From assembly GCA_002256025.1 (NCBI GenBank), contig NKIB01000285.1, forward strand, positions 1 through 33,861: a DNA stretch of 33,861 bases, in the 5' to 3' direction. Made by a program: the position numbers and the translations under genes. Position 1 is the first letter of the stretch. Each line of letters starts with the position of its first letter. Below, one piece after another: positions 1 through 33,522 of the stretch. Source of the stretch: Asterionella formosa (Eukaryota). The notes under the pieces are model-generated. The model was not told the DNA's origin and searched no databases. It saw only the letters and a program-made list of their open reading frames with translations.

Positions 1-85
1 ACCGTACTGTATTACAGTAGTGCATCACTACTAGTACATACATCACAGTACCACGTAGTACAGAACTATGTATGTCACACAAACA
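1..85 (-). repeat. 3' LTR (partial)
   Basis: 1-77 identical to 6476-6552; 78-85 cacaaaca vs 6553-6560 gactaaca (2 mismatches); begins TGTT on the element strand directly after the PPT. Confidence 0.93.
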
Positions 86-102
86 CCCCCCCCCCCTCGC
101 TC
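86..102 (-). promoter_or_regulatory. Polypurine tract (plus-strand primer site)
   Basis: Element strand reads GAGCGA followed by G11, immediately before the TG of the 3' LTR. Confidence 0.9.
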
Positions 103-1985
103 AAAAGGCTGTTTTGAGGGAAGAATCAAGTGGGACAGAGGAGACATAAGTTGGACCAAGGCGGCCAGTGATAGTATCAAGATGGCGGGCAAACAGGATA
201 CCTCCAGTTTGCTTTGTAATGGCATCAGCAGCGTTGAATCCTGAGGGAACATCCTCCAGAGCAACAAGATCACGTTCAACCCAATCAGTTAGGGCATAAT
301 GACGAATGTCAATGTGCCGTGACTGTTTAGTAGGTTGGCCGGCATGAGCCATCAAAAGGGCACCACGGTTGTCCTCATAGAGGAGGGTAGCATATGTCTG
401 GGGAACATGAAGTTCATCTAGCTAAGATGGAGCGAAGGTAGAGGGCCATTTTCCCAGCATCACTTGCAGCAAGAAATTCAGCTTCAGTGGAACTGAGGGA
501 GACTGTGGGTTGAACACGACATTTCCAGGCAATTGCAGCACCAGCAAGTTTGAAGACAATCCCTGATATGGAACGACGGTGATGGATATCCATAGCCCAG
601 TCAGAATCAACATACCCAAAGACAGCAAATGGAGAGTAATGCGCAGTGGCAGCAGAAACATCATGGAGGAGATGTTGATCATTTGGACGGGTAAGTAAAG
701 GAGGAGGAGATACAAAAGGGAGAGTGGAGTGGGGTGCAGTACGCCAATAGGTGAGACCATGGTCAATCGTACCAGAAAGGTAACGGAAGACCCGCTTAAC
801 AGCAGTGTAATATAAAGCTGAAGGACTGGTTGAAAACTGACTGAGTTTGACCACTGGAAAACTGATTTCAGGGCGACAAGTGATCATAGCCCAGATAAGC
901 TCCCCAATAGCACCACGATATCGGAAATGGGCTTTCTCTAAGGCATGACATTCGGTCTCAGTGGTAGGAGCAGTAGCAGTGTCAAGGGTGCGGATATATT
1001 CATTATCAGCAGGCATGGGCAAATGTGTGGGTTTCATATCATCCCAACCATGATTAGAAAGAAGTTTGCGGATATAAGAACCACAGTGTACAGTGATGAA
1101 GGTGCGAGTTTGAACAATGTCAAGACCATTATAGTGTGTCAAGAGTCCTTGGCGTTTCATGGGTACAAGAAGGTTTGTGTCAAGAGAGTTGCAAATTTGA
1201 GTGTAAAGCTGTTCATTGTTAGTGGCAATGGCGAAATCATCCACTTGGCGAAGAAATAGGACATTTTCTTTGTTGATAGTGGCACAATAAATGCAGGGAG
1301 CATGGACAGTAGGAATAAACTGGTAAGTTTGAAGGATATTATCAATGTGACGAGACCACTGACGAGGGGCTTCAGGGTGACCTTGGAGATTCTTGAGAAT
1401 GGGAATGACAAAATCTGCTGGAATGGGGGAACGCCCTTTGCTGGCCCACCAATCACGAAAGTGAACATCAACTCGCATAAAATATTGTTGTTCAGGAGCA
1501 GCAGCTTCAGCAAAAGCATTAGAAACATCAGCTCCATAGATTAACTTGTTTTCAAGAGTAGCAAGGGCAAAGAAGAGGCGAAGATCGGTCATATCAGGGG
1601 TGGGAGCATAAGTGGGTCCATGGATTTGTGCTTGGCCACCACGAGTAGAACCATCACAAACAGCTCTTGCCTTTTTACGATATTTATCTTCATCCTTAAC
1701 CTTGTAGATCCAAACCCAATGGAAGATTGCAGCACCAGGAGGAGGAGCAACAGGGGAACCAAACATGTCTTGCTTATCATATTGATCAAGCTGCTCAAAT
1801 TCGGAGGCAAGCCAATCGGACCAGTCAGATTGTTTTTGAAGTCCTTGTCTAGTAAGACGACAGGCAAGGGCACCAGAAGGAGTAGAAGAGGATTGACGAA
1901 GACTGTGAGTGATCGTGCGCAAGTCACGAAGTTGATCAAAGTAGAGTTGAGGAAGTCCAGAAGAAGAGAGAGAGTTCCGAAAATT
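101..1985 (-). pseudogene. pol: Copia reverse transcriptase + RNase H (frameshifted near 420)
   Basis: WIYKVK..KKARAVCDGS, GADVSNAF, LKNLQG, RQVDDF, GYVDSDWA..RRSISG, SLSSTEAEF; continues after a 4-bp insertion as LLYEDNRGA..SRHIDIRHY..AADAITK. Confidence 0.95.
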
Positions 1986-2290
1986 CATCAAAAGTAAAGC
2001 AGATGGTGCAGGTGGTGGCGTTATGGTGACGAAGTGTTTGAATGACTTGTTTAAAGTCAGAAAGATTGTCAATCGAAACATCATTGATGTAGAGAATGTA
2101 GGCAAGGCGAAGGCGGGATCTCCATCTACTGATGCGAGCAGCAGGTGTACCAGAAAGACAGGCCAGGAGACGAAGGCGACCACGAAGAGAATCAAATTGA
2201 AGGTGTAGACCAGCAGTTTCATGGGTTCCAGTGATTGGTATGGTTTCAACAAAGGACGGACCAAAGGGATTTCCAGATAATTCAATAGAC
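1985..2290 (-). other. PDZ-like domain within pol, between integrase and RT
   Basis: ORF 1936..2415: GLHLQF..RLRLLACLSGTPAA..LRLAYILYINDVSI..DFKQVIQTL..CTICF resembles the PDZ pattern Gxxh..hh.V.PGSPAA..L.xGDxIhxINg..v....h..h. Confidence 0.6.
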
Positions 2291-2559
2291 ATGACTTCAG
2301 GAGCAGTAAGGGATGCTGCTGCAGCAGCAAGAGGTGGACCACATTCAACAGATGGGGTAATGCTGCCTGTTGGAAGATGGGGATCTATAGGAGTTGTGGC
2401 AGGGCTGGACAACACGGCGAAATCATACTGGCATAATTCACCAAAGGGAAGAGGAAGTTGGCATGCAAGAGGAGAAGAGAAACGAGAGGGAAGGCCATGG
2501 TGCAGAGTTTTTCAACAGATAGGTGGAGGAATGTTCACTACTATCAGCAGCAGGAGTAG

Positions 2560-3688
2560 ACACCAATGTAGGTATCATGGCAGGATGGGAAGTATGTAAA
2601 CCAAGGTCAAAAAGAAATTGCGGACCAGGGGGTCGATGGGAGGAGGTATAATGTGATTCATCAAAGGTGAAACTGCCACCAACTTTAACCCGTCCAGCAG
2701 AATGAACATCAATATACATCACATTTTTGGTGGACCCTTCATAACCAAGGAATATACCATCATAAGTGTGACGATCCAATTTTGCAGGGCGATCACCAGG
2801 AATACGAGTTGTTAAAAGAGATCCAAAAACACGCAAGTGGGAAAGATCAGGCTTATGTCCGTTCCACAATTCAAAGGGTGTACAAGCAAGAGCAGAATGC
2901 CACAGACGGTTCTTGAGATGCACAGCATGGACAAGGGCTGCACTCCAATATTTGGGTGGTAGGCCAGAAGAATAAAGAAGTGAGTGCACCATGACACCAA
3001 AAGTGCCATTGAGACGTTCAACTTTGCCATTTTGATGAGGACTGTCACTACCAGTAGGTTCCATGATATATCCTGCATGAGCAGTGACATCTCGTAAGGC
3101 GGCAGAGCGCCAAAGCTCACCTCCTTGATCAAGGCGGAGAGCACGGTAACCAGTTGGAAGACCATTCTGGAGCAAGAAGGTTTTAACAAGGTCAATGGGT
3201 GGGGCCTTGCTGGTAGTGAGAAAAATCCAAGTGAATCGAGTTTTGGCATCCGTAATGAGGAGATAGGAATTGTATCCATCATAGGAGTCAACAACACGTG
3301 ATGCACCAGGTGTCTTATGAAAAATGAACCCAAAATCGAAATGAAAACGAGAACCAGGGAGGAGGTGATCGACAGGGGATATGGGGCCCATGGGATTCCT
3401 CCGGGCACGGGCATCACTGCAGATTTTGCAATGGTGTAGTGGATGAACTTGGTGATGTAGGCCATGAGGAAGACCAGTGGCACACTGTTGTAAATGGCGA
3501 AGCTGATGCATGCCAGGATGACCAAGTCGTTGATGCCAGAGTTCAGTGGAAAGCAAAGGTGACAATCTGCTGGCATGAGGTGTGATTGTCAATTGTTTGA
3601 AGTAGAAGAGATTGTTTGTGAGAGTCAAGGGCGCATCAGAAAAATGATCATCAGAGGATCTGAAGAAGCGTACAAATGCACTGTCCAT
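2560..3688 (-). pseudogene. pol: Copia integrase (HHCC zinc finger and DD35E core)
   Basis: LWHQRLGHPG...CKIC; HFDFG; LRLDQGGE; SPHQNGKVERLN; WNGHKPDLSHLRVFGS; GIFLGY; frameshift at about 2500-2560. Confidence 0.95.
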
Positions 3689-4357
3689 ATTGTGGCAGTG
3701 TATTTCAAAACCAGAGAAGTTGTTGTAAGATTGTGAGCAAATATGTTGTGGGGAAATCAGAGTCTCAGAGAGTTGTGGGCATCAATACATCATAATTTCT
3801 GCAGTAGTTCCATTAGTGAAAAACAGGGAGAAGAAACCAAAGCCAGGGCAGAGCATACCAGAGACAGAAGCGTCCGCACCTAAGAGGTCAAAAGGTTTGT
3901 CTAAAGGGGTATAGTGGTGGAGAAGGGAGAGATTGGCAGTAGCACAAATATTGGCCCCAATATCACATTGCTCACCCACAGCTGCATGAGGATGTTGTAA
4001 TGGGGTATTTACAGAAAGATCATTAAGACGAGCAGTATGGACAATAGGAAGGAGATCAGGAAAAGGAGCTGAATGGAGAAGTTGGGGGGGGAAGTGGGGG
4101 TGCACAGTCCAGATGGAGATGAAGGTTGTCAGGAAGAGTAACAGCCCTAGTAGGACATAGAAGTTGTGTGGTGTGGGGAGAAGCAACAAGAGGAGAAGAG
4201 GTCGTAGGAGCCAGTGGAGTAACCAAGAGCGGGAGATCACATGAAGAAGCCGGAGGTATTGGCGGTGACAACAGAGCATTGGGCTCTCCGACAGTTGTCC
4301 CGCCATCCCGAGGAAGCCGTTCATCATTCTGGGGATGGTAAAATGACCGGCTTAGAG
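3689..4357 (-). pseudogene. pol: pol N-terminus with aspartic protease
   Basis: QCDIGANICAT (D-[STI]-G-A motif) ... ETLISPQ; in-frame TGA at 3782-3784; frame change at the G8 run 4084-4091. Confidence 0.8.
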
Positions 4358-4364
4358 AAAATCC
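4303..4364 (-). promoter_or_regulatory. Candidate -1 programmed ribosomal frameshift signal (gag/pol)
   Basis: G GAT TTT heptamer at 4364-4358 just before the gag TAA; 6-nt spacer; stem-loop whose loop CCATCCC can pair with downstream GGGATGG; -1 frame is open to 4056. Confidence 0.6.
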
Positions 4365-5754
4365 ACTTCGTAAATGACATTGTCCAGTGTGAGATTAAGA
4401 TCAGAGACTGGAATATCAGGTTGAAGATGGTGTAAGTGATGTGCCATAGCACGCCGGTGAGTGGTGCTGTGAAGCTCTTTCCATGTAGCAGCAGCCCGAT
4501 CAGCATGGTCTTGATGAGAGGAGATATATTGGTGGACAAGGTAATGCTTGGCAAGGGTTGAGCACCGAGTGGCAGAGTGTCCCCAAGTGCCACATGCATC
4601 ACATTGAAGCTCCTCACGTTGGCGGAAGGGGTGATGAGGAGGCCTACTAGTAGATGAAGTGGGAGGTCCAGAGGAAGGAGGGCGGGAAGGATGATGCCGG
4701 AGACGGTGTGCAAAGGGAATCAAGGGAGTGTCATGATGAAAAGAACCTTAGAAAGTTCACCCTGCCGATAAGCTAGGATTGCTGCTGCAAATTTCACTGG
4801 ATCAACAGAATCAGAATAGCGAGGGAGTGGTGCAAGAGCTGATGAAGTAGTGTCAGCAGCATGGGCAAGGAGAGCATGTAAGAAGTAGTATGCAGCAAGC
4901 TTGCTATCAGAATGGGTGACATGCTCTAGGTAAAGGAGGCGAATAATTTCATTTTTCATGTCAAGGGCAGTGGAGCTTTGTAGTTTGAGAAGTAAGAGGC
5001 TACCCATTTCAAAGACAATAGGTGTGGGAAGATTTTGGGGCCAAAGAGCATGACCCTTTTGGAATTGGCAAAGAGGACAGAGATCAATCTGGGTGGCAGT
5101 AGCTTGTTGACAAAGTTTCCTATACCAGTCATGGATGTCAGCAGGAGCAGTAGAGGCAAGGGTAGGTAGGTCAATTGAGAGGAAAGATTTTTTATCGATA
5201 TTGATGGCAGTGGTGATACTAGTGGATTTCCAAAGGGGATGTGGACTCAACGGAGCAGTGGCAGCACCAGTACCAGAACGTCGCTCAAGATCCTTGGTGT
5301 CAGCCTGAAGAATAGCATCATGGTATGAATGGGAATATAGAGGAGGAGATGGTAAGCCAGGTGGGGAAAGGGTTGAACCAAGGTTGGCATGAGGAGTGTT
5401 ACTTGGAGGTTCAAGAAGGACGGCAGCAGGAGGAGAGTTTTGTAGAGCAGGAGGAGAGAGGAACAAAGCAAATGCATCACTATCAAACTCATGAATCCAG
5501 TCAAAGTTGTTGCTGCCACCAGTGTCAGAAGACTGTGCAAACCACATAACTAGTCCCATGATGGTGTCACTGTCAAGCCAATCCCACAGGGGGTCAGCGA
5601 CAAGAGAAGGGGGAAGAAGAGAGGTATCAGTGTCATCACCATGATGGATACGCCGCAATGCACGTTGGAATTTAGAAAGAGTGAGGCGGGGATGATTGGT
5701 CATAAAGACTGCAATGGAGTCGGGAGCTAGGCCTGCTTGAAATAAGATGTCCAT
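4352..5754 (-). pseudogene. gag: gag (broken into two frames near 4720-4745) with CCHC zinc knuckle
   Basis: ORFs 4720..5754 and 4352..4723; CDACGTWGHSATRC = CX2CX4HX4C; lies between PBS and pol. Confidence 0.85.
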
Positions 5755-6356
5755 AACAGATCCAGGAATGTAGGAGGGAGGGGAAGAGCTGGCCTTTTTT
5801 TTTTAAAGAAATGAATTGAAGAAGAAGTTGGAGAGACAGACAGACCGAGAAATGGGGGATGGAAGGACAGACCACAGAGGAGACCGAAAAAAAGGATGGA
5901 AGGACAGACCTTTAAAAGATAACACAGCCAAACAAAAGAAGAAAAAAAATGGTATCCACACCCAGGAAAAGGGAACAGAGAAGCAGACAGAACGTGCGAA
6001 TTTCGTGACAGATGGTTGTGTCACAGGAGCAAACAGGATGGTATGGGCTGATACGGAGATGGCTGGCGGCCTCTTTTGTGAAGGAAGACAAAAAAGATGA
6101 CAGGAATGTGCTGAAAAGAAGGGCAAGGAAGGAGAGAAGTAGAGGGGGGTGGTGGTAGTCCAGAACTTCAAGGAATGGGAAAGGCTGTGTGGCCGGAAAA
6201 GCACGTAGAAGTAATGCAAGACACAGAAGATGCGTTTTTGTACTGTGTAGACAGAATTTCAAAGCAGAAGCGAAGAAGAAGTGGGTTGAACGACACCTCA
6301 CAGTGGCTACGGAAGAGAAACAAGAAGAGGAGTTGAGGGGTCAGGCAACTGCAAAA

Positions 6357-6368
6357 GGGCTCATAACC
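6357..6368 (-). promoter_or_regulatory. Primer binding site complementary to the anticodon arm of initiator tRNA-Met
   Basis: Element strand GGTTATGAGCCC directly after the LTR terminal CA; complement GGGCUCAUAACC contains the CAU anticodon loop. Confidence 0.85.
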
Positions 6369-6560
6369 TGTCAATGCAATATCAAAAGATGAAATGCAAA
6401 ATTATAATACTACTCAGGATATTCTTCTACGATAGGAATGTAGGTAGATGTAGTGTAGATGCATATCAAGTACATACCGTACTGTATTACAGTAGTGCAT
6501 CACTACTAGTACATACATCACAGTACCACGTAGTACAGAACTATGTATGTCAGACTAACA
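6369..6560 (-). repeat. 5' LTR, 192 bp, TGT...ACA termini
   Basis: Bounded by the PBS on one side and by the end of homology with 1-85 on the other; flank aacct (6561-6565) is the candidate TSD, its partner lies outside the window. Confidence 0.9.
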
Positions 6561-6655: not shown

Positions 6656-8290
6656 GTTGTAAATGGCTTTGAGCCACATTATTATATTGTTTTCCGACTA
6701 ATTCTAGAAGTATGCTAAAATCGATCCCCTCTTAGCCCTTTGGCACGATATTTGTTAGTTCATTGAACTACATAAGAATTAGATCATTTCTTTACTTGAA
6801 CATATATTCACTGAAATCTATCCATTTTAAAAGTACCAAAAACGGTCGAAGTGGCTCAAAGCCATTGATTAAAATTTTGCCATACAAGTACTTATTTATA
6901 TAGCCAACGGTTAGAAAATATTATATCGTTTGCATGTTTTTTGCAGTTGTTGCATCGTTTTTAGACTGATGGTGTTCTTGTTGGTTCTATCTCCTCGCAT
7001 TTTTCGCAGTAGTTGTTGCATCATTCTTAGACTTGTGGTCCTCCCAAAGGGTGCTGAGGAAGTGGCGCTGTTTCAGCAGTTGCAACTGGTACTGCAGCAT
7101 CGCCACGCATCATTGTGTCATGGAATCTAGTAACTAGTAGTTTATTTGATGTTGGTAATAGAAGATCCTCGCCTGCTCGCTTTTATCACATCGCCATTGT
7201 TTTCATTTGTGTTACTGTCCACTCAGCTGGCTGTTTTTTAAGCGATCGGATTGCATAATCCTTGTTTGCAAGAACCATGTGTGCGTATATTTTCCGATTC
7301 TCTCGCTCAATCTACACTTCTTCTGCATGCCTCTTCTTCTTTAGCTGGTCATAGAACACTTCAGGCAGCAAGTACCTGCCTGCAGCGACATGAAGACCGG
7401 CTGTGTATCGTTTATTGCTTGAAATCGCCTCTAGTGCTGTTTCTTTTCGTTGGCAGGCAAGTTTGTCCAGATGTATTCCGTTTCTAGCATCCTCAAGATT
7501 GCTATACTGTACGATCTGATCCACAAGAGTTGCAGTGATGCCTTGGCTCAAGTTTAGCCCAGATGGGGGAATAGAAGAGACGGGTTGATTATTGTTTGTT
7601 TCTGATTGCAGATTTGAGGTACTTGCCAGTTGAATTTCTGGATGGAGTAACAAGTTGTTGTTCAATGGGACCCAACCTTTTTCAGCAACAACGATATGGG
7701 CAAAGGATTCATCCCATGCTTTCAACACCAGGTCAACAATACCTTTCTTTTCAACAGCACATGCAGTATGGCGCCTTTCCTTTAGGGTGAGTAAGTCTCT
7801 CTTGCATTTCGTGATTTGGATCTTTAAACTTGATTTTACAGTCAGGGTAGAAATTGATGAACTATGTCCTGCTAACAACTGTGAATCATTTATTGTCATA
7901 GTAGCATATAATTGCACTAATGAATTAGTTGCCTTTCCCGCCTGATTTAGCTTCTACAGATGGTACTGAACTAAAGTTAGTGTTTGCCAAGCCAGTGTAC
8001 TAGCCGCAATTGATGCAACAATATTCGATATTGCACCATATAGTAGTGTGACATTGTTATTTGCCTTTCAAAGTTTCTAATTCCATTACCATGTATTTTT
8101 TAAATAATTGACACTACAGTCTTATCCAAAGAAATAGGTAGTATCACCTTGTACTTTTTTGGATGGTTGAGGCTGCTTTCTTGCTGTCATAGGTTTGATC
8201 GTTGTTAATGAGATGACTGCGATTTGCCTCAATTTTTGGTTTGTTGTAAGAGATTTCTGCTGTGCATTACGGTCTCTGACATGAAAATAA
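6656..8290 (-). mobile_element. pogo-like DNA transposon derivative, copy A (internally deleted)
   Basis: ORF 7312..7917 has KCKRDLL..IVDLVLKAWDESFA..KGWVPLNNNLLLHPEI, resembling the C-terminal part of pogo/DDE_1 transposases; homologous in inverted orientation to 31965-33522; terminal 22 bp identical between copies. Confidence 0.75.
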
Positions 8291-12258: not shown

Positions 12259-14731
12259 ATGACGCTCCAAGAGCGAAGTGCGACGAAAAGAATTGAGGCC
12301 GCAGGAACACCATCAAAAAATATTTTTAAAAACGAGCCTTCCAGGGGACTGAATGTAACGCCTCTAAGGAATTATTTCACTCGCAAGTCATCGAAACAAG
12401 TCCGCACCAATGATGTAAGTTACCTTATTAGTAAACATGGAGGGCATCTTGGTAGATCAAACTCCATGCATTCGGGTTTGGTCACAATCACATTCAAATC
12501 ATTACTCTCACAAACTTTAGCTGCCTTTCGAGGACGGAGCGGTCGGGGCCGTTTCCCTTTGGGGGTTCATTTATTGCTGCATCTCTTTGACTGTTCCACT
12601 TGCATATATTTATATTTTGCTGATACTGTTGAGAGAGCTCTGTATGTACTTTCCTCAATCTATTTACGCAGGGATCAAATCCTATTTGCCATGGTTGGCA
12701 ACCGTGGTGGCTACAATGGCACAGTCTTCATTGCTTGTCGAAATCTGGTGCGTCGTTGAAGCAATATTTTTCGTCGGACTTAAGCTTCAAATTAGATATT
12801 TGCAACGAAAAGATCCTCTTGAAGCAAGCCTCAGTTCGGCACCGATGATGGAGTTGGTAGATCGACAAATCCTATGGGGACGGATGATGGCATCAGAATC
12901 CAAGGACCCCGTTGAATTTATCTCTGGCTGGTTTTTTGACGAGCCATTGGAAAAGATCAGCAAATATGATGTTCGAGACTTTGTAGCTTGGAGCATGTTT
13001 GAAGGGCGAAATCAAGAGCATTTGACAGGGGAGGAACTACAACAAGTAGACGAATTTGTGGAAGACTTTGAATATCGACTCAGTGTTCATTTGCACGGTC
13101 TATTGAAAGAAGATGGAATGGACGAGAAAGAGAATATTAATGCCAACCCAGAACTAAATTTATCTAGAAGCACACAAAACGATATCGATTGGAAGGAATT
13201 GGCAGTAATGAATCGACCCCTGCCTAAGGAAATCTTTCGATTTCACGAGAGTACAACTGACGAGCAGCCCAATTTTTTCTCAAACCTTTATGAAAATTAC
13301 AAACAGCACTATGAGCAATATCGAAGCATGCTCGAGAATGCTGATTTTCATCCTGTGCAAGACTTTCGAAATTTTATGGCGGAAGCAGAAGAGAATGCAT
13401 TGGCAACAGCCAGCCAAATGTACGAAAACGCGTATCACAGCTTGATTACACCAGGTTCCAGCATGGATAAGCAGTTGGCTGCATTGTCTCATGCGACGCA
13501 AGTACAATTGACTGAAGCATGGAACTCAGTGAAAGGCATGCGAAAACGTCTGGAAACCGCAGAATTTCTATCGACGCAACGAAAGCGACTACGACAGCAG
13601 CTAAAAGGATACCGTGTTTTACTCAATCGAATGAGAAGCATGTCATCTTCTGTTCCATCAAAGCAAATGGCCAACTTAATGCGAAAAATAACAGATTGTA
13701 ATGATGCCATGCAGAATATTGAAAATCGAGCAATGGATGCATTTGCCGAAGCCACTGGATATGCTCGCAAAAGCTTGATGCCGACTCAGGAACCTCAACA
13801 CTACGCAAAATACTCCTCTGATCCATTATTGGGGGTTGTAACATATCCCTTGGGTTTACATTTATTTATTTTGGGGGCTACTGAAATCCCTCTTCGTATC
13901 CTGATGCACCGGCGCAGTTTCACGCGCCTGGTAGTTGGAAAAGTCGCCTATTATTTTAACCCAGGGCAACAACACGATGATGACAATGATGAGGAAAAAA
14001 TACCTATTGTGTTTGTTCATGGTATTGGTATCGGACTCATTGCCTATATACCTTTAATTGACCAGATGCTCCAGTCTGGGCGACCAATGCTTCTTCCAGA
14101 AATACCATATGTTTCAGGATTTCGTCCCTTTCAATCTCCCAACTCCGTCTTATCTCCTGCGGTTGTTTCCAGCACCATGACGGACATGCTCGCAACACAT
14201 GGTTACTTGAGAGGGACATTTGTGGGCCATTCATATGGAAGTGTTTGGTTGTCATACATGCTGAAGTATGCACCAAATGCGATTGGTGCTGTCATTTTTC
14301 TTGACCCCATTTGCTTCTGTTTGCATGTTCCTCGATTGACAAAACAGTTTGTCTATCATCGGCCTGATCCTGGTACTGCCTCTTTCATGGTTCGAACTGA
14401 TGTGATCATCAACTGGACTATTCAACGCAGTTTCCCCTGGTCATGGATTGTCCTCTTTCATGAGCAGATCCACGTTCCCTGCAGTATCTTCTTAAGTGAA
14501 CGAGACATGCTGGTTCCTGCAACTAAGGTTGAAGCATACTTTCAGTCAAAAGGTGCCCCTATCAAGGATTTCTCCGATGTGACACGGAATCACTTTGAAG
14601 ATTGTGCAACAAATGTGACAGTTTTTCGAGGTGATGGCCATGGGGGTTGGTGTGAAAGGCCATTTTCAACAAGTCCAGTAATTGCTGAGTGTGTTGAAGT
14701 GCTTTGTCGCCGTGCTGAACAAGGATCATAG
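12259..14731 (+). CDS. Alpha/beta hydrolase fold protein, 2 exons (12259-12414, 12521-14731), about 788 aa
   Basis: Phase-0 intron 12415-12520 GTAAGT...TTTAG joins ORF 12259 to the long frame; PIVFVHGIGIG, nucleophile elbow GHSYGS, FLDPICF, distal GHGG; N-terminal hydrophobic segments. Confidence 0.88.
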
Positions 14732-19840: not shown

Positions 19841-20842
19841 TAGCATGCCAAAATTGTTCGATCTGAATTGCTATTTATTGTCATGATGTGAGATCACATC
19901 CAACACCACCTCGAAATTGCATGACATTGGCACTGCTAGCTAACTCAAAATCGTACCAGTAGTCAAATGGTGCATTGAGTGTACTATGTATACCGGGTTA
20001 ACCGTACAAATCCATGCACGTTTTCATACACCCATTATGCATTTTTTAATTTGTTGTCGTATTTCGAAATCAAGTATGGCGTACGAACGGATTCTGGATT
20101 CCGTCCTGTGGTACACTCGTGTGTAGAATTTATTGTATGTAGCCTGTTCATATCTCACCTGCATAAATGTCGAAGTGTCCAGTAAAACTGAAATTCAACT
20201 CATCATTTCTTTTGTTTGAACAAGAAGAACCATCCGCAAACCATATTGGCATCGAGCAAAATTATGTCTACATACAGCAACATAGAGATAATGAAGACAT
20301 TGAAATTTCATTTTGGTTTGTTTAAAATGGAACTCTATCAATCTGGCGCCGATTCCTATTTAATTCAAATATTCAAATGGACACTCAAATCATGGGAATT
20401 CATAGAAGCAAACTCCTTGTTCCCTACCGCTTTTACAACCCTAACAGTTTTTTCTGTAAACTACCGGTAGGGCCGGGGCCCCAACTAAATATTGATGTGT
20501 TCGATATATTGATAGATTCATGTGTATGCATATGTAAAACATACATGTATATGTGTATATTACACTACTATTTGTTTTGCTGTGGTACTCATACCAGGTA
20601 CCTGATTGTAGCACAGTGGCATACCGGTAATTGCGTACAAAACGTAGACTCTAACGGTGAGCTCTGTCCTTTATAGAGCCAAATTTGTTTTTTCACTGAC
20701 TGTGACTATCATACTTATACCTCTGTGCATACTGGCATGTACTCTACGCTTCATACGCCTGTGAGCTGATGTCGACCGAGCACATTGCTCAGCGTCGTTT
20801 CTTATTTCAACCATTGCGACAACGATTTCTACAATCGGGGCC

Positions 20843-22924
20843 ATGAACCGGCGCATCGCTAGAGGAACTACCGGTAGCTTGCCGATGCTGCCACAACAAG
20901 TTAATGCTGAGCTGCTGGCTGCTACCAACAGGAAATCTACATGGGCCACAACAGCTTGCAAAGTTTTGTTCATTTTCGCTTTTGGGTTTGCGTGGTATGT
21001 GAGTGACCCACGCAGTTGGGAACTGCAAGTGGACCCTTATCCTCTCAGCACATCGCTTGCGATTACCGGTAGTTCCAAGAACAGGCTTATCAAATCCAAT
21101 GCGATTAGTAGTATTGATTCCATGAGTGAGAGTAGGCGCTCCATGCTGTCCGCCACAACTCTCCTCCCTTCCCTAATACCCCAACCTTTTGCTGACAATC
21201 GCTACGTAGAGAGATCCTTGGACGACTATCATGACCTTTGCGTTGTTGGAGCTGGATTGTCAGGAACTGTAATTGCCGAACGATATGCCAATGTTCGGAA
21301 CCAGACGTCCCTTGTCATTGAACGCAGAGACCATATTGCTGGAAACTGCTATGACTACATAGATGAAGAAACGGGCATTCGAGTTTCCAAGTATGGTGCT
21401 CATTTGTTCCACACGTACTTTGAACGTGTCTGGGATTATGTCCAAAAATTTAGCGATTGGACCAAATATGAGCACGAAGTGGTTGCTCTCGTGGATGGCA
21501 AGCATGTTCCTGTCCCAGTCAATATTGATACTGTCAATTCCTTGTTCGGTCTCAGTATTGACAGTGAGTCAAAAATGGATGAATGGCTCAAGAAAGAGCA
21601 AGTAAAGTTTGACATCCCGAAGAACTCTGAAGAAATGGCCTTGTCTCGAGTTGGTCAGCGTCTATATAGACTTATTTTTCATCCTTACACCATCAAGCAG
21701 TGGGCCAAGGAACCCAAAGAGTTAGGACCAGAAGTGACCGCCCGAATTCCTGTTCGAAACAATCGAGATAGCCGCTACTTTTCAGATCCTCACCAGGCCC
21801 TTCCCAAAAATGGGTACACTGCTATTTTCGAAAAGATGATGGACAACCCTCTCATTACTTTAAAGACTAATACCGACTTTTTCGAAGTTCGGGAGCGCCT
21901 TCGATGTGGAAAAATTTATTACACAGGACCTATCGATCGTTATTTTGCCGATTTGGGATGGAACAAGCTAGAATACCGATCGTTAGATTTTGGTCGCCAA
22001 GTTATCAAGAATATTGATTTCTTCCAGCCAAAGGGTGTGGTCAATCATCCCAATGCAACGACAAACTACACACGTATTGTTGAATACAAGCACTTTTTAA
22101 ATCAAACTTCGGATCATACAATATTGTTCTTCGAATATAGCAAAGATGACGGAGAGCCTTATTACCCAGTGCCTAACCCAGAAAATGAGAATTTGTTCAA
22201 AAAGTACCAGGCGATGGCAGACATGGAGCGCGGTGTAACCTTCGCAGGGCGACTTGCCAATTACAAGTACTTCAACATGGATCAGACTATTGAAAACGCT
22301 TTAAGTTTGTTCGAGAAGGACACCCAGTCGCTGGATTTGATAGTCAGCTATTGTGAAGGGGATGATTTGAACTGGATTAAAGAGTGGCACGTCAAGTTAA
22401 AAATCAGTCATACATACGTTTATGCATCATGCGAGGCGCCTTCTGTTGAAGCTGACCAAATCGCGAAAGCATTTACACGCGCTCTCAATATGAAAACTGC
22501 CATCGCCAGTGGTGCGCAAGGCAATGAAGATTCAAAAGAAGGCTTACACGATTCAATCCCGTTTGAAAAAGCCAACAAAATAATGAAGGACGGTATCCAA
22601 CCTGTTGTCGATCATGGAAGTGCCGACTCAATCACTCTTCACTTTTTGCGAAAAGATATTGAATTTGGCTCACAGTCAGTCTTCGTACAGGGAAATACGA
22701 AGATGACTGCTGAAATTGTACAAAACTCTGTGAAGGAAATTGAGGAATGGACAGTCTTCATCGACTTCGCCAAGCTCCCCTTCAAGGGTTGCGAAACCAG
22801 CAAGTGTGATCGCAATTTCAATCCAGAGGTTGGCAGTGACTTTTATGTTACACAAGAGGCAATAAAACGGTATTTGAGTGTCAACCTTGAAGAATTAAGG
22901 AGACGTGGGGCGGCACAGGAGTAG
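20843..22924 (+). CDS. glf: UDP-galactopyranose mutase (prokaryotic-type) with N-terminal membrane anchor and C-terminal DUF3431-like domain, 693 aa, intronless
   Basis: VVGAGLSG, IERRDHIAGNCYD, YGAHLFHT, YTIKQW, RIPVR, YTGPID, LEYRSL, YTRIVEYKHF, EPYYPVP, GRLANYKYFNMDQ. Confidence 0.93.
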   Translation: MNRRIARGTTGSLPMLPQQVNAELLAATNRKSTWATTACKVLFIFAFGFAWYVSDPRSWELQVDPYPLSTSLAITGSSKNRLIKSNAISSIDSMSESRRSMLSATTLLPSLIPQPFADNRYVERSLDDYHDLCVVGAGLSGTVIAERYANVRNQTSLVIERRDHIAGNCYDYIDEETGIRVSKYGAHLFHTYFERVWDYVQKFSDWTKYEHEVVALVDGKHVPVPVNIDTVNSLFGLSIDSESKMDEWLKKEQVKFDIPKNSEEMALSRVGQRLYRLIFHPYTIKQWAKEPKELGPEVTARIPVRNNRDSRYFSDPHQALPKNGYTAIFEKMMDNPLITLKTNTDFFEVRERLRCGKIYYTGPIDRYFADLGWNKLEYRSLDFGRQVIKNIDFFQPKGVVNHPNATTNYTRIVEYKHFLNQTSDHTILFFEYSKDDGEPYYPVPNPENENLFKKYQAMADMERGVTFAGRLANYKYFNMDQTIENALSLFEKDTQSLDLIVSYCEGDDLNWIKEWHVKLKISHTYVYASCEAPSVEADQIAKAFTRALNMKTAIASGAQGNEDSKEGLHDSIPFEKANKIMKDGIQPVVDHGSADSITLHFLRKDIEFGSQSVFVQGNTKMTAEIVQNSVKEIEEWTVFIDFAKLPFKGCETSKCDRNFNPEVGSDFYVTQEAIKRYLSVNLEELRRRGAAQE

Positions 22925-23111: not shown

Positions 23112-26100
23112 TTAACCTGATTCATGAACGCTTTCCCAATATCTCGAATCATTGCCGGCGTCAGAATGATACCGGCGAGATCGTGCCTGAGTTGTCCCTA
23201 TCTGTTGCTTCTCCATCTCGAGCATACGTGAACGAAGCGTTCGGATTTCGCTTTCTTTCTCATCAATGATTGATGATAAGCGAACTTTTAGCTGTACGAT
23301 TTCGTCATTGCGGTCCTCGAAGCCTTTCTTCGCCCTTGCTGAAATCATTGCTGTAAGATCTTCGGCTTGAAACCTTCGAGTCTGCTCTGCCTTGAAGACT
23401 TCCATTGACACCCAGTTGTCAACATCCGAAGCAGATGCGCGTTGCGCTCTAAGGTGCTCGTTCTCCTTTTCGAGGAGTCGAATCCTGTGAGCTCCTAAAC
23501 TCAACTCAGCAGGGTACGATGCATCTGGGTCGTCAGCAAAGCGACCCCTGTAAGCATAGCCTCCACTGGACCGTTCTTCCATATCTTGTAAAACTTGAAA
23601 ATTACTTAAACGCCCAGATTTCGTTCGGGCATTGTTGACCATATCCAACTCGCGCTTCATCGAATCAATCGACGATTCTAGTTGTCCCAACTTCTTAGAA
23701 ACATCACTATTCTCAACCTCAACTGTGACCCTATTCGCTTCCAGTTCTTCGATTTGTTCACGAAGAGTCACTGAGCTTCTCTCAGCTCTTTCCTGATCTA
23801 CTTTGCATCGCTCAAGGTTTTCTGTCAATTTCTGTTTTGTGTCTTCGCACACCTTCAAGTCATTTACAGCTGTCGCTAGTGTGGATTCCATGGATCGCTT
23901 CTCCTCTACAATTCTGGCAACTTGCTCTCTGGTGTCTCTTTGAAATTTCTCGACAGTCTCTTTCATTGTTGTCATGTGTTTCATCGCTTGATTTCGCTCA
24001 ATCGTCATGCTCCTCAGCATTGACTGAAGTCGCTTTATCTCAGCGTTAAGAAGGTCACTTGTATTATCAGCATTCATTACAACGTCGTCTCGAGCTTTCT
24101 GGGAAGATTCCAGTTCCAGCTGAAGTCGGTTGACTTGGTCGCGCTCACGTCGGAGCTCATTGGATAGTGACAACTTCTCTTGCTTCGCCAAGTTGTCAGT
24201 TAGAACATGCTCCGTTTTCGTATCAACAAGGTGCTGCTGAGATAGAATTAACTCCTGGCTGAGCTTAGCAATCTCAATATTCAATCGTTTTAACTCTTCG
24301 TCGTTCACCTCATTGCTTTGTAGTGACAACGATTGCTGCTTCGATACAATCACCTTCATTTCATGGCAAGCATTCTTCCAGTGTCTGATTTCCTTGACTG
24401 TGGAGTCCAATTTACCCTTCAGTTCGACAATTTGAGCGTTCTCAGATTTAAGTCCTGTAATAATGTTTCTCTCACTTGTTAGCCTTTCCAACAATGTAAC
24501 CTGTTCCACAGTCAGAATTTCCACCTGATTGGCTAACTCAGCAATGGTAACATCACAATTTGAGTGGTCCAACGCTAACTCCGTCGCTTTCTTTTCGGAT
24601 GCTATCAGATCGGTCATTAATTGCTGATACGACTCTGTTAGTCTTTCGACTTCATCGTCCCTTTGTCGTAGTTGTTGTTCAGTAACTGAAAGCTCCTCCA
24701 TTTTCAATTTAAGCTCTCGTTCCATTCCAAGCTGTGACATAACTGCTTCTTCCGCGATCTTCTCGACAGAGCTGCGCTCAATAATTGTCAGATCTAGAAT
24801 TGAGTTCATGTTTGCCATTTCTTTCTCGTACTTTTTTTGTAAGCGGTGATATTCGTCGGTCCGTCTGGTTAGTTCCTTGTTTGCTTCTTCCGCATGATGT
24901 TCCGCAGATAAACGGGCTGCCAAAGCCTCGTCAAATCGTTTTTGTTGTGTATCTTGGAACGCTTGAAGGCGCTCAAGAGAGGTTGCACTCGATTCCCAAA
25001 GCCCGTTCTGCATTCTCTTAACTTCATCAACTGTCCCCTGCAAATTGTGGATTTCACTAAAAAAAGGAGTGCTGTCGATGGTTTCAGTCAATGGGCGTTT
25101 ATTCTCACCTGTTCCATCAATGCTGCTCATTTGTGACCTGTGCACTGAGGTGATTGACTCAGTTTCTGCGCCCACTGTATTGAAGGACTTCAAAGGAGAT
25201 TGCGATACTGAAGAATGCGCAAAGCTTCTAACAGGAATCGAAACGTCGTGTGCCTTTTCACAACTCCAGGGTCTGCTATCAGGCTGTTTGGAACGAGGAG
25301 GCTGAAAATCGATGTCTACGTATCTGTACCCGGCAAGTGCAGGTCCATCGCAATTACCTTCGTCATTTTGAGGAACAAGTCTTTCAAGGACAAGATTTCC
25401 TGGGTCTACCGCTCCATCTCTATCCATCGGGAAGCGGATATATTCCTGGTCCAAGTTGTCAAAATCCCGCTCCAATAAGTCTTCTTCCAACCATTCACCG
25501 AGAAGGGCCTCGTTGTCCACGTTTTGTTCCAGGTAGAATGTTGAATCATCAGGAGTTATAAGTGGAATCAAGCAGTCGCTGTGAGTATTATTCGTTGCCA
25601 TATCTGTAGTCTGGATCATTTCATGCTTTTGGATTGCCAAGTTCGGTTCACCGAGAAAACCAGGAAATTCTGGTTGTTTTTGGTATGGGTTCTCCTTCCT
25701 GGATTCCCACAATATTTGTTCGTTGTGAGGTGAAAAATCTGGAGACTCGATTTGGATATCAAATCTTTCGGTTTCTACACTTTCGCTGCATGCGTATTCA
25801 ACGTCATCCGCAAAAACCGTTCCATTTTCGCTAGCATTTACCTGAGCCACTCTATTACTTTCTCCAATAATCGCGGGCGTCTCAGTTTGCACAAATGAGA
25901 TGTCGCCGGGATCAATCGCCATATAATCTGTTGGCTGATAGCTCTCCTCCAAATGCAACCTTTTTGGTGTTACCCGAGGTTTTGCTGGTGACTTGCTTAA
26001 AAGCTTGGCCAAGCGCTGGCGAGGATCGGAAGTAACGCTCTTCATCAAACCCTCATCGGTACCACGTTGATCTATCAAAAGTTCTACAGGTGACGACTTG

Positions 26101-27731
26101 ATTGAATCTGGGGTTATTCGATCAAATGGAGACTGAGCTGTCGTTCCGGGTCGAATGAGCAATCTGTTGACATAGTCAAGTGTATGCAAAGTTCGCTCAT
26201 ACGCCAAAGCCTGAGCAGAAACAGAAGCGAGAAATACAGTTTGAGTGCCTTCCTCTGACAAGACACGCTGGAGGATCTTGGTTAGCGTGCACTCTCGGAA
26301 TGAAACAGAATGGCTCTCACTATTTATCTCTTGCAAAATAAGACTGCGCAGGACGCCACGCAAGAAAGATAGTGACTTGCGAGCCGACGCCATGCGTTTT
26401 CGCACCGTTGAACCCATTCCAGGAGAATCGTGGCCATTGCATAATTCAACAAATTGAAGGGTGACGCACTTGGTCGCATGATCCAAGTCCCTTTGAACTG
26501 CATTCTCCCAAATCTTGAATGTACATATTATGTGTCCACGAGGCCCTTCTCGTTTCCGAATGCGTAGAGCGGTTTGCGAATAAAAGGCCTTTCGGAGGAG
26601 GTGATCTAGTCCCATCAAAGAATCAACAGGAGAATCAACTAGATTCTGGAGTAATGCCCCACGATGATCGAGATGACGAATTTTGAGTTTAGACTGAGAG
26701 TCGATCGAATCGAGGCTAAGCATATCACGAATAGTCTCCTCGTCGGCAATTTCAAGAAACGAGATTGTGCAAACCGCGTCGTCGGGGAGGACTTTCAAAA
26801 TGTTATTAAATGTCATACCCAATATTCCAAGGGATTCAGGTGATCGGCTCAATGAAGGAGATTCCTCCAATCTTGGCTTGCCTCCTGATCCAAAGAGAGA
26901 GGTCCCCTTCAGGTTTCCCAAAGCGAAACAAACAACGTTTCGATGCCTTAGGGTCGCATCGTTTGAGAAACTCTCGGCCAGCCTTCCAATGGATCCCGCT
27001 TCTTCCGATCCACGAGACCAGACTACTTCGTCGAAGCGATACTTGCGCGCCCAGTCTTCAGATTCAATGTTGGCCTAGTTTCAGCGTGTCAGCCAACGTG
27101 GGGTAGTAGCAGGAATACTAGGTGCCAAAGAAGCAGCACAGATACTACGTACCACTTGAGCAACCAGCCGAGCAGTTTCCATTGTAAACTGTGCTGGAAT
27201 GTGTTTACCAAAAGCAGAAGGATTGACAACGACCAATTCTCTTGTCGATTCTTTGACCGCTTGCTGGATCGTCGCAGATATCGGACTCAAAAGATCCTCA
27301 GGGTTGGAAGGTGATGCAATAACTAAAGGGAATAGACACAATTTGCTCGATTTCGGGGCGTTTTCGTTGTTTTCTGGAACATTAACAGTGATAACGACAG
27401 ATACCTTTCGGCAAGAAATCAGGGATAGATTCGCATCGGTATTAAAAGCACATGAAGCCATAGCATCCACTTTCCCCTTTTCTGATTTCATGAGAGGTGA
27501 GAACGGTGACATTGGCCCACGATTCTGCCGTTCAAACGGCGGCAACTTGGTAGTTTTCACTGCGTTCTGAGGCGATCGTGAGATTGAAAGTCTTTGTTGA
27601 CCGACACTTTCAGATATCGACAGAGTAGGCCCATCGAGGACTTCTGCTGAGTCCAAGAGATCCTCTTTACTGCTATCAGAAGAGTCTGATCCAACAACCT
27701 CTGACAAGTAAAACGACAATTCAGTTTCCAT
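23112..27731 (-). CDS. Kinesin-like protein with divergent motor domain and long coiled coil, 2 exons (27731-27153, 27074-23112), about 1513 aa
   Basis: Phase-0 intron 27152-27075 GTACGT..CTGAC..CTAG; YRFDEV, SFLEIADEETIRDML, KSLSFLRGVL, VSFRECTLTKILQ, TVFLASVS..ERTLHTLDY; heptad-rich C-terminal half. Confidence 0.85.
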
Positions 27732-29496
27732 TCCTGCTGAATACTAGCATGTATAAAGAAAACTAATTCGATCGACCTCAACAAGATCATGCATTTGGAA
27801 TTTATGTATAATGATGGAGAACTGCTTTATAGCATCATGGCGATGCATCACAGCATCAAGATCGGTGAGCCTATATAGCGGTATACAGCAGCAATTGCTT
27901 ATGAGGATTATCTTTATTTCACACTGATACGACGATGTTACATGATGATTATAGCTATTCTTGATGTCGAAACAGAGGATGCCATTGTTTTGGCGCGCTT
28001 TGTTGTCGTTTTGGCTGATTGATTCTAAGAAATACAACGATACGGTTCCCGTTTCAAACGACTAAAATCACCCGGTAGGCTGAAATGTGCAGTGCCCGAC
28101 ATGCGGCCGAAGATCGAATATTGCGAAAATCTTTTATCTTCGTATTCAGGAAATTTTATGGCCATACTATGGTCCTGAAGATTAAATAATGCATCAATCC
28201 ATACGTCAAATGACCTGATCTCATAAATTGATATTTATTTCCTACATTAAAATTGGTAGTCTCATTCATAGGAATAATAAAGTAATTGATAATCATGAAA
28301 CTCATCAACACTCAACATTGCCATCATTGTTGTTGCTGTTGCTGTGAGGCGATTGGCCTTCACATCAGCCTATCTCATTTCCCCTCTCCCACCACCAGCA
28401 TCTTCCTACTGTCACTAAAAATGACTCATAAACATTTCATGTTAATACCAAATTTCACAACCAAGGCAGGCAGCACCAAATGTAAACAAGTATTTGACTA
28501 AATATCCTCCAAGAAGGCAGCACTCAGCCAGGAATGAGATGATCACGATTGATTCAGAGTTATGAAGAATTTGTAATCAATGCATGCCTAGAGCCAATCA
28601 ATGGCTGTCTTAAAACTGCCAATAAAATTCGACACAGTACCAGGCAGGACCAAGCTTGAAAGCTTGATACACTCCTGACATATAGAATATTATGGCTGGA
28701 GTATGCAGCAAGTGACAAATTAATTGTCAATATGCTGTTGATGATGCATGTGGTTGAAAACTTTAAGGAATGCAAACCGATTTTTCAGACTACCAAAGAC
28801 TCCTTCAATGTCTTTGCAAACAGACTCAAGCATACTAGCTGACTGCTAGCAAGTCCTGATTTAAAGAATATACAAGACATGGCCAGCGAAGACATCCACC
28901 ATCGCAAATATTTCGGCTCAATCAAGTAAGTGATCTCTGAAAACTGAAGAAGGGATCTTTGGCTGGTTGAGAAAAAAATGTAGGGGGGGGGGGGCAAGAA
29001 CCTTGGGGGCGGCCGGACAACAATAAAGTTTATGGTACCGGTACCTGGTACCAGGTACTGATATGTATGCTCTACGTTGCGTTTCCTATGTAAAATCAAA
29101 TCGCATTATCTCAGCTAAATAATTATATACCGACTCGCACGTCGCCTACCTCCTGTAGGTGTATCCCTCTACTGTTGCAGAAACAAAACAAGAATTGTCG
29201 TGTTACATGGAGATATAAATAACGTCTGTCAAGTTATCTACACAAAATGAAGAATTACAAGCTTATGACATCCTGGACCTGCCCAAGGAATTGACGATGC
29301 GCACCAAGCTTGTGCTCATCAGGTTACAACAGCTATGCAATGACACAGTGACGAGAAATCACAATAAAGAAAGATGGATGGAGTGGAGAGGCTACGTCGC
29401 GCCGTATAACCAATGTATATGTTGATTCGAATCAGAAGAACGGAGGATAAATAATAGAAAATAAGCCTTCAATGCAGCTAGGAAGAACATAGTCTC

Positions 29497-31913: not shown

Positions 31914-33522
31914 ATGTCAGAGATTGTAATTCACATCAGAAATTGCAGCTGATGCACCACTTCACATGTCAGAGACCATAATTCACATCAGAAATTGCTT
32001 CAGATGCACCACAAAATGAAGCAAATTGCGATCATCACATCAACAAAGATGAAACCTACAGCAAGAAAACAGCCTCAACCATCCAAAAAGTACAAGGAGA
32101 TACCTTATTTTTTGGATAAGACTGAACGTAGTCTCGCTTATTCATTAAATGGAAATAACAATGGCAAACTGCCATACTATGGTGCAATATCAAATATTGT
32201 TGCATCTTACTAGGTGGCTACACTGACTTGGCTAACAAAATCTACTATGGTCCAGTAACATTTGCAGAAGCTACATCAGCCAGGTGGGAAAGGCAACTAA
32301 TTCACTAGTGCAATTACCTGCTATGACAATAAATAATTCCCAGTTGTTGGCAGGACATTCCTCATCAATTTCTACCCTGACTGCAAATTCGAGTATTAAT
32401 ACTCCACTCCTGTATCAACCAGTTGACACATTCATGAGTAGTGGTGGCGCAAATGGTGGTGCATGGGTAGAAATAATGAAGCGAAAGAAAAGGAAGCAAA
32501 TAATGGAGAAAAACTTACCTGTGAAAGGGGAGGGAACTTTGTGAAACTGACAACAATGATGACACCCGGAAGCACCAAAGCCATGTAACGAGAATATGAG
32601 CAACCCTTTGCACAAGCCAATATACAGTATTGCAATCATGAGGATCCTAGTTGGAACATAAACAAATCTGGACAAACTTACCCACCAACGAAAAGAAACA
32701 GCACCATTAAGAGCGATTGAAAGCAATAAACGATACACAGCTGGTATTCATGTTGCTGCAGGCGGGTACTTGTTGGTTGCTGAAGTGGTTGATGACCAGC
32801 TGAAAAGGAAGAGGTATGCGTAAGAAGTGCAAAGTGAGCGAGCGAGTAAGAAACATTTGCATACAAAGCGCTTGCAAACAAGGTTTATGCAATCAGAACG
32901 CTAAACAAACGCCATTAGAGTGGACAGTGGCGCAAATGAAAACAATGGCGATGCGGTACAAGCAAGCTGACAATATTCCACTACCAACTACAATGAAGCA
33001 ACTTCTACTTACCAGATATCATGGCCACATGATTCATGTCAACGCTGCAGTATTAGTTGCAACTGTAATGCCGCCACTTACTCACCCTTCAGTCGCTCTT
33101 ATTTCACGACAAGATATGATGGGAGGACCACCAGTCTAAGAATGATGCAACAACTACAGTGAAAAAACGTGCGAGGAGTCTTTGATTGAACTGATAAGAT
33201 ATGATGGGAGCATCACCATTCTTAGAGCCATGCAACTACTGCTCAAAAAATGGAAACTATATAATATTTTCTAACCATTGCCTATAAAAATAAGTACATG
33301 TAGTTTTAATCAAAGGCTTTGAGCCACTTCTACCGTTTTTGTTACTTTTAAAATGGATAGATCTCAGTTATTATATGTTCAATTATAAAAATGATTTAAA
33401 TTTCATGTAGCTTAATGAACTAACTAATATCATGCCAAAGGGCGAAAGAGGAGATCGATTTTAGCATATATCTAGAATTAGTCGGAAAACGATAAAAAAA
33501 GTGGCTCAAAGCCATTTACAAC
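31914..33522 (+). mobile_element. pogo-like DNA transposon derivative, copy B
   Basis: Inverted homology with 6656-8290 (e.g. KPTARKQPQPSKK, SQLLAGHSSSISTLT, SNKRYTAG.HVAAG); tandem duplication of about 50 bp at 31914-32012; ends gtggctcaaagccatttacaac. Confidence 0.78.

Follow-up and report, generated by a model that had tools for sequence, protein, structure and literature searches.

Structure and transcription of the gene

We analysed a stretch of 33,861 nucleotides from the diatom Asterionella formosa (hereafter the window), which is the entire contig NKIB01000285.1 (C285) of a 68 Mb assembly. At positions 20843..22924 of the plus strand, it carries an intronless open reading frame (ORF) of 693 amino acids without internal stop. 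Its product combines a predicted membrane anchor, a UDP-galactopyranose mutase (UGM) domain binding flavin adenine dinucleotide (FAD), and a degenerate C-terminal domain related to the DUF3431 family. By sequence it belongs to the prokaryotic UGM family, and its features suggest that it most likely behaves like a luminal nucleotide-sugar interconverting enzyme. The gene is organized as follows (GT-A, glycosyltransferase-A fold; pLDDT, predicted local distance difference test).

20843..22924, plus strand: whole gene (signal anchor, stem, prokaryotic-type UGM, degenerate DUF3431-like GT-A domain).
20793..20842, plus strand: probable 5' untranslated region, the start region of the RNA contigs (contig ends at 20793, 20801, 20803 and 20842).
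20843..20950, plus strand: N-terminal tail, residues 1-36, basic beside the membrane segment and predicted to be cytosolic (sequence; charge difference -3).
20951..21001, plus strand: short Phe-rich hydrophobic segment, residues 37-53, predicted type II signal anchor (hydropathy).
21002..21223, plus strand: Ser-rich stem, residues 54-127, of variable length among homologues (sequence).
21224..22318, plus strand: UGM catalytic domain, residues 128-492 (TIGR00031, alignment with 3hdq, column conservation).
21239..21241, plus strand: Cys133, clade-specific in the clade alignment, candidate disulfide partner of Cys355.
21299..21307, plus strand: N-glycosylation sequon N153, kept in 43/124 clade proteins.
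21905..21907, plus strand: Cys355, clade-specific in the clade alignment, candidate disulfide partner of Cys133.
22052..22072, plus strand: sequons N404 and N408, kept in 9/124 and 55/124 clade proteins, respectively.
22100..22108, plus strand: sequon N420, kept in 84/124 clade proteins and 13/75 viral relatives, and not among the listed bacterial sites.
22325..22921, plus strand: C-terminal domain, residues 495-693, a truncated GT-A-fold domain that appears DUF3431-derived and has lost the polar motifs (profiles, predicted model).
22490..22621, plus strand: low-confidence insertion (residues ~550-593) at the most conserved motif of the family (alignment; pLDDT of 39-62 by blocks).

Met1 is the first in-frame ATG, the preceding in-frame stop lying just before 20765, and both Met1 and Met15 precede the hydrophobic segment. 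RNA contigs from 4/4 runs (three studies; the matching datasets are algal and freshwater libraries) span the anchor, the UGM domain and the tail without a joint. Since they cross the whole ORF, the anchor belongs to the transcript; the contigs fix neither the start site nor the strand. Positions 20502-20703 had no RNA contig cover in the four runs.

The genome contains three UGM loci. Besides the query, these are C14221, an intact paralogue that has both anchor and tail, and C4360 (L003), a copy with anchor and without tail whose frameshift near the end of the domain may reflect an allele, a pseudogene or an assembly error. An N-terminal hydrophobic segment is present at all three. No soluble UGM copy was found in this incomplete assembly. 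A search with NF005548 as stand-in for the fungal type of UGM gave no match either; this test is weak, as the assembly is incomplete and its genes bear introns. The same architecture was recovered in the intact paralogue and in 22 homologues; with RNA contigs bridging the junctions, this rules out a fusion artefact of sequencing or gene calling.

A prokaryotic-type UGM core in a eukaryotic clade

The GxGxxG FAD motif, the histidine loop and the Trp/Arg/Tyr substrate residues are all intact, in line with the intact FAD and substrate motifs noted from the sequence. Residues H187, H190, W287, R305, Y312, R411, Y441, R470, Y476 and D480 align with the Deinococcus radiodurans UGM 3hdq and are invariant in 120/120 clade cores and 75/75 bacterial cores; we take them to have the catalytic and binding roles of their UGM counterparts. 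The core matches TIGR00031 with 337.4 bits (curated cut-off 303.75) and PF03275 with an E-value of 4e-67. Because it passes TIGR00031 and matches 3hdq at E 1.9e-105, as against a partial match at E 6.4e-5 to the Trypanosoma cruzi UGM 4dsg, its sequence places it in the prokaryotic and not in the fungal/trypanosome class. According to PMC3624792, where the comparison is given, these classes share 14-18% identity, and members of the fungal/trypanosomatid class show about 47-60% identity to AfUGM/TcUGM and have a domain about 100 residues longer. The query domain, of about 365 residues, has neither trait. Some homologues are already labelled UDP-galactopyranose mutase in databases.

The 120 best homologues are 51-99% identical to the query. 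Their named members include many diatoms, a gregarine transcriptome and one brittle star; a cryptophyte came from a separate search. The 80 nearest bacterial loci, mostly Bacteroidota, show 49-56% identity. A tree was built with FastTree and midpoint rooting from 124 eukaryote-type cores together with 75 bacterial and 75 viral ones, each of the latter two sets coming from 80 loci. In this tree, 123 of the 124 eukaryote-type cores form one clade (support 0.907), P0205 falling outside, and the clade is sister to a mostly viral group. Bacterial sampling was biased, as it covered the nearest relatives; therefore no donor is named. The anchored UGM is real and general, and no oddity.

Bacterial contamination was considered and is ruled out by the eukaryotic neighbours of the gene, a copia element in the window and the grouping of 123/124 eukaryote-type cores. 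The brittle star protein (P0049, Amphiura filiformis) has an N-terminal DUF5672 domain and lies on a 68 Mb scaffold. It is the sole named animal member seen, no other named animal appearing among its own 120 best matches, and may result from transfer or contamination. An animal branch of the clade was therefore not used as an account of the echinoderm galactofuranose (Galf) described in PMC3509529.

Predicted membrane anchor and topology

Topology was assessed from hydropathy and charge rules. Residues 37-53 have a mean Kyte-Doolittle (KD) value of 1.68 over 17 residues; for comparison, the best 17-mers found inside the homologous UGM cores have a mean of 0.9 and reach 1.54 at most. Lys and Arg precede the segment and acidic residues follow it (charge difference, C minus N, of -3), and the stem contains 16 Ser in 74 residues (54-127). 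The basic tail, hydrophobic segment and Ser-rich stem first recognized in the sequence are thereby borne out, and the query displays the type II layout of a single N-terminal segment with a positive N side, a stem and a catalytic domain.

A segment with KD >= 1.5 is found in 22/23 of the closest proteins and, as an N-terminal 17-mer, in 90/121 proteins of the homologue set; the N side is the more positive one, as in type II proteins, in 70 of these 90. In P0347, a hydrophobic stretch occupies the extreme N-terminus and is directly followed by an enzyme domain. By these sequence measures, the anchor is a trait of the whole clade. In contrast, prokaryotic UGMs are soluble and lack an N-terminal membrane segment: bacterial relatives have just 8-27 residues before the FAD motif (75 of 80 loci with a readable ORF), whereas the query has a 127-residue extension that includes the segment.

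Three further features bear on the location of the UGM domain. First, Cys133 and Cys355 occur together in 122/124 clade cores and in 0/75 bacterial and 0/75 viral cores, and account for two of the five clade-diagnostic near-invariant columns among 367. They presumably lie on neighbouring strands of the UGM fold and could form a structural disulfide. Second, the four sequons listed in the original prediction are present at N153, N404, N408 and N420, and the ratio of observed to shuffled N-x-T sites is 1.96 in the clade, compared with 1.31 for the bacterial and 1.42 for the viral cores, whereas N-x-S shows no excess. Third, the UGM is fused to other domains in related proteins. Among 30 homologues chosen for their long extensions, we found GT61 (3), DUF707 (3), TylF (2), GT4 (1), DUF5672 (1) and Sulfotransfer_2 (1 over cut-off), of which GT61, DUF707 and Sulfotransfer_2 are luminal Golgi families. 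Moreover, P0325, from the cryptophyte Geminigera cryophila, joins an anchor, a GalE-family 4-epimerase, a UGM and an intact DUF3431-like domain in one chain, and P0347 joins an anchor or signal peptide, a GalE-family 4-epimerase and a UGM. Their domain content indicates a donor pathway within one chain.

Because the anchor with its type II bias, the Cys pair, the N-x-T excess and the Golgi-type fusions all point the same way, the UGM domain is probably luminal. This family-wide evidence, indirect as each line is, supports the type II topology first suggested by the single sequence.

The C-terminal domain

The tail had been described as resembling DUF3431 and as degenerate. The second statement was confirmed by the motif analysis below. 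As to the first, direct searches of Pfam, NCBIfam and ESM Atlas with the tail gave no match, and PF11913 (gathering cut-off 25 bits) matched neither the full protein nor the tail alone. However, a profile built from 26 short proteins that pass PF11913 gave the tail 28.0 bits, compared with at most 7.6 bits for 1000 shuffled and at most 4.3 bits for reversed tails; these 26 members had been retrieved with a profile including the query tail, and the test is not fully independent. A profile of 23 close tails matched four longer tails (E 1e-14 to 1e-27), three of which match PF11913 below its cut-off. A search with a six-tail profile returned 694 representatives at E <= 1e-3, and 37 of the 94 proteins scanned (91 of 150 listed, chosen on rank and length, together with three fragments of the query) passed the PF11913 cut-off. 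Searching for shorter relatives of an intact tail gave three fragments of the same fusion. Thus the profiles indicate that the tail is derived from DUF3431, though it stands outside the family by the Pfam test.

The predicted structure gave a consistent picture. The tail model has a pLDDT of 81, with a core above 90, and its best structural match is ArnC (Z 10.2, root-mean-square deviation (rmsd) 3.3, 133 residues aligned). All 50 rows of a VIA-align comparison are GT-A transferases or nucleotidyltransferase-fold proteins; Foldseek with the same model gave no match at E <= 1e-3. The model of an intact relative reached Z 11.5 (rmsd 4.1, 187 aligned) and 19 Foldseek matches at E <= 1e-3. In the models, the tail is a GT-A fold, and such a predicted fold points to no particular donor.

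Two polar motifs, Asn-x-Gly-Arg-Glu after strand 3 and Glu-Arg-x-Trp in the last helix, are kept in 69/75 and 70/75 intact DUF3431-like members, respectively, and in 0/23 close tails. The last helix is absent from 23/23 close tails, the query tail being about 40 residues shorter at its C-terminus than DUF3431, and the replacement residues are variable. Nevertheless, Tyr527, His600, Phe614 and Phe667 are kept in 21/21 close tails, and comparison with the paralogue gave proportions of non-synonymous and synonymous differences (pN and pS) of 0.30 and 0.74, which indicates that the tail is under purifying selection. Because the polar residues are lost and purifying selection nonetheless persists, the tail is probably a maintained pseudo-transferase. 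The 23 degenerate fusions form one clade (support 0.994), intact fusions occur at the deepest branches and elsewhere, and the tail is absent altogether from many diatom homologues.

We give the least credence to the alternative of an active tail, in which a remodelled site would still transfer furanoses and make the protein a complete mutase-transferase: the well-predicted GT-A core (pLDDT above 90), the purifying selection and the intact fusions at the deepest branches of the clade would suit it, but 23/23 close tails lack the entire last helix and most of the near-invariant polar residues, the residues replacing the latter vary, and many diatom homologues do without the tail.

DUF3431-like proteins outside the gene

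Single-protein searches revealed three DUF3431-like genes elsewhere in the genome: C14438 (L177), C8417 (L179) and C1177 (L180). Their products have N-terminal hydrophobic segments and largely intact motifs (60-78 bits), and their relatives carry 2-4 tandem copies of the domain. A PF11913 profile search of the genome gave 0 matches, its control also being without a match, and Pfam scans of two of the three proteins found none.

Near viral UGMs, a DUF3431-like ORF lies within 2.5 kb at 13/80 loci; in 4 cases the two are fused in soluble proteins, in 3 distant lineages. Such fusions are found at L121:2492-4213, L131:2486-4273 and L147. L121 is probably a giant virus, as the fusion adjoins an apparent RNA polymerase large-subunit gene. 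Intact UGM-DUF3431 fusions also recur in other protists.

Finally, the choanoflagellate proteins P0225 (Choanoeca) and P0232 (Hartaetosiga) combine eroded UGM motifs with an intact DUF3431-like domain. Together with P0227, P0315 and P0205, they have a hydrophobic N-terminus, a divergent UGM whose motifs are eroded and an intact DUF3431-like domain, which makes them the mirror image of the diatom protein.

Surroundings of the gene

A Ty1/copia retrotransposon with interrupted pol frames occupies 1-6560 on the minus strand; positions 1-85 and 6476-6560 are 97.6% identical and probably are its long terminal repeats. A decayed repeat is present in two inverted copies, 77-82% identical (6656-8283 and 31965-33522). 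A 736-residue frame at 12521-14731 (plus strand) has a weak alpha/beta-hydrolase match. Upstream of the gene, 20307-20455 is a short dispersed repeat, to which each of the four runs contributes several unrelated RNA contigs matching at 90-99%. Downstream, a convergent gene (23112-27743, minus strand) encodes a long coiled coil; we take its N-terminal part to resemble a degenerate kinesin motor, and a Pfam scan gave no kinesin match.

Elsewhere in the genome, C6909 (L182) encodes a GalE-like protein that begins with a hydrophobic leader, and C9122 (L188) a UXS-like protein whose anchor is of type II. From these layouts, their products may be further luminal donor-making enzymes.

Proposed mechanism

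We consider it probable that the protein is a type II protein of the endoplasmic reticulum (ER) or Golgi, whose luminal flavoenzyme domain converts a UDP-pyranose, most likely UDP-galactopyranose (UDP-Galp), to the furanose on site. The gene is transcribed with its anchor, as seen at the level of RNA contigs. With this anchor, the N-terminus would stay cytosolic and the UGM domain would face the lumen, become N-glycosylated and be stabilized by a Cys133-Cys355 disulfide. UDP-Galp would enter through an ordinary nucleotide-sugar transporter, and a dedicated UDP-Galf importer would therefore be unneeded; the genome has 12 matches to PF04142, candidates for such a transporter. Reduced FAD would then contract the ring as in bacterial UGMs, whose motifs are present.

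As originally foreseen, luminal conversion requires luminal flavin reduction. A putative luminal donor would be called upon only occasionally: the electron demand would be small because the reaction is redox-neutral and, for the trypanosome enzyme, about 1000 turnovers per reduction are reported in PMC3624792. Four clade-specific arginines, Arg180, Arg195, Arg273 and Arg385, offer leads to a possible reductant site.

The furanose donor would be used by separate Golgi transferases. The original prediction had it channelled to a fused or partnered transferase-like module; a role of the fused module as an active transferase is not supported, and three candidates for a separate partner exist in the genome. 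Because both family motifs are missing from 23/23 close tails, catalysis would have to come from another protein, and the three intact DUF3431-like proteins with predicted type II anchors are the best candidates. The tail, judged from its residue losses, would be a non-catalytic relic of an ancestral mutase-transferase fusion, perhaps retained as a structural, docking or binding module.

Several observations weigh against this interpretation. The hydropathy of the query segment is modest (KD 1.68), 16/90 proteins with a segment show the reverse charge bias, and 31/121 homologues lack a segment. For about 10 of these 31, residue 1 already aligns within the stem or domain of a longer relative, which suggests truncated gene calls; the others, which keep both cysteines, may be soluble forms. 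The counts come from related sequences and are not independent events. Tails show no sequon enrichment (19 observed, 26.6 expected), and the absolute number of N-x-T sites is as high in viral (2.25) as in clade cores (2.15). A DUF3431-like ORF was found near the UGM at 0/80 bacterial loci (1.5 kb flanks), and the background controls for the viral co-location, with n=5 and n=4 loci, are too small. Literature searches revealed neither a DUF3431 protein with a shown activity nor a clear account of Galf in diatom glycans. Finally, according to PMC3624792, NAD(P)H is a poor reductant for UGMs of the prokaryotic type, which makes luminal reduction hard to account for.

Alternative explanations

The same luminal mutase might act on another sugar and supply UDP-L-arabinofuranose or a fuco- or 6-deoxy-furanose donor for secreted polysaccharides, which we regard as unlikely. 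Here, precedents exist: UGMs interconvert arabinose, if inefficiently (PMC6861824), a related flavin mutase uses CDP-D-fucopyranose (PMC12369002), the GT61 family, fused in 3/30 homologues, is described as including arabinofuranosyltransferases (PMC12507850), and Table 3 of PMC4584364 lists fucofuranose linkages in Chaetoceros exopolysaccharides, no mutase being named there. Also, no plant-type UAM (PF03214) was found in the genome. On the other hand, all motifs aligned with the Deinococcus UGM are kept, and L-fucose is normally GDP-linked. The type of epimerase in P0325 and P0347 decides between galactose and arabinose. From its motifs, we assume that it resembles a UDP-xylose 4-epimerase; searches give the GalE family only. 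The epimerases of the genome are just ~22-38% identical to it over long alignments, which speaks against arabinose, as does PMC4584364, where the pathways predicted for diatoms do not include a UDP-arabinose 4-epimerase.

Alternatively, the mutase could face the cytosol, held by its anchor on the outer surface of the Golgi or ER beside a transporter, like plant UAMs on the cytosolic Golgi face. This would remove the flavin-reduction problem, and would fit the short hydrophobic segment, the reverse charge bias (16/90), the homologues without a segment (31/121) and the cytosolic location of all characterized UGMs and UAMs (PMC7278926, PMC6861824). We find it quite improbable, given that the type II charge pattern dominates, that the Cys pair is specific to the clade and that N-x-T sites are in excess, together with the signal-peptide-like N-termini of some members and the fusions with Golgi-type domains.

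It is more improbable still that the protein enters the ER and works elsewhere, in the periplastid compartment, in the plastid or at the cell surface, for glycolipids or extracellular remodelling. Diatom plastid proteins do cross the ER membrane as well, a reducing compartment would suit the flavin, and the Ser-rich stem and the GalE-like protein with an N-terminal hydrophobic leader would be compatible with such a route. However, a crude ASAF-type motif was found in just 1/90 anchored homologues, the hydrophobic segment begins only at residue 37, the stem contains acidic residues and the fusion partners are of Golgi type.

Relation to known systems and significance

UXS and GAE are Golgi-luminal nucleotide-sugar interconverting enzymes, and CHPF is a catalytically dead partner of CHSY. 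As in such dead GT-A partner domains, the predicted tail keeps the GT-A fold without its catalytic residues; it differs in being fused to a donor-making enzyme, and any partner of its own is putative. With the uncharacterized DUF3431 family (PF11913) it shares ancestry by profile and the predicted GT-A fold, but it scores below the Pfam cut-off, has a shorter C-terminus, has lost the polar motifs and is fused to a mutase. The core resembles prokaryotic Glf (TIGR00031, PF03275, 3hdq) in domain length and in FAD and substrate-binding motifs, whereas the signal anchor, the stem, the conserved sequons, the clade-specific Cys pair and the fused GT-A domain set the query apart.

The fungal and trypanosomatid UGMs (AfUGM/GlfA, TcUGM), with GlfB/UgtA, carry out the reaction predicted here and likewise feed Golgi glycosylation, but they belong to another sequence class, are cytosolic and NADPH-reduced, and need a UDP-Galf importer; for Aspergillus, this import into the Golgi is described in PMC4630932. 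Closer in predicted layout is the plant UDP-xylose 4-epimerase MUR4, a donor-making luminal enzyme with a type II anchor (PMC6861824, PMC12507850). MUR4-type enzymes are NAD-bound short-chain dehydrogenases/reductases, whereas the query is predicted to need oxygen-sensitive reduced FAD and to make a furanose, a step that in plants is cytosolic: UAM acts in the cytosol, on a substrate of luminal origin (PMC6861824). UGM is likewise described as cytosolic in PMC7278926, and the algal records given in PMC7773692 are for green algae only. We found no membrane-anchored or luminal pyranose mutase in searches of an open-access library.

More broadly, we tentatively propose, as a possible though doubtful scheme, a third, overlooked furanose pathway running wholly within the secretory lumen of diatoms, cryptophytes and other protists, in which a prokaryotic-type flavin mutase related to those of giant viruses, ancestrally fused to DUF3431, would make the UDP-furanose beside its transferases. 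DUF3431 would be a furanosyltransferase family, with the labour divided between the two domains: a dead transferase in diatoms, a decayed mutase in choanoflagellates. If true, such a pathway would depend on a system that keeps a Golgi-luminal flavin in its reduced state, and would account for the furanose sugars found in diatom exopolysaccharides.

A luminal mutase, if confirmed, would break the rule, as stated in PMC7278926, PMC4630932 and PMC6861824, that furanose donors arise in the cytosol and reach the Golgi by import. It would avoid the export-reimport loop of plants and would imply an undescribed reducing input to a luminal flavin. DUF3431 would become testable as a furanosyltransferase family with defined donor candidates. 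Altogether, the gene is a candidate for the origin of the unexplained furanoses of diatom exopolysaccharides (Table 3 of PMC4584364), which may be relevant to adhesion and marine carbon.

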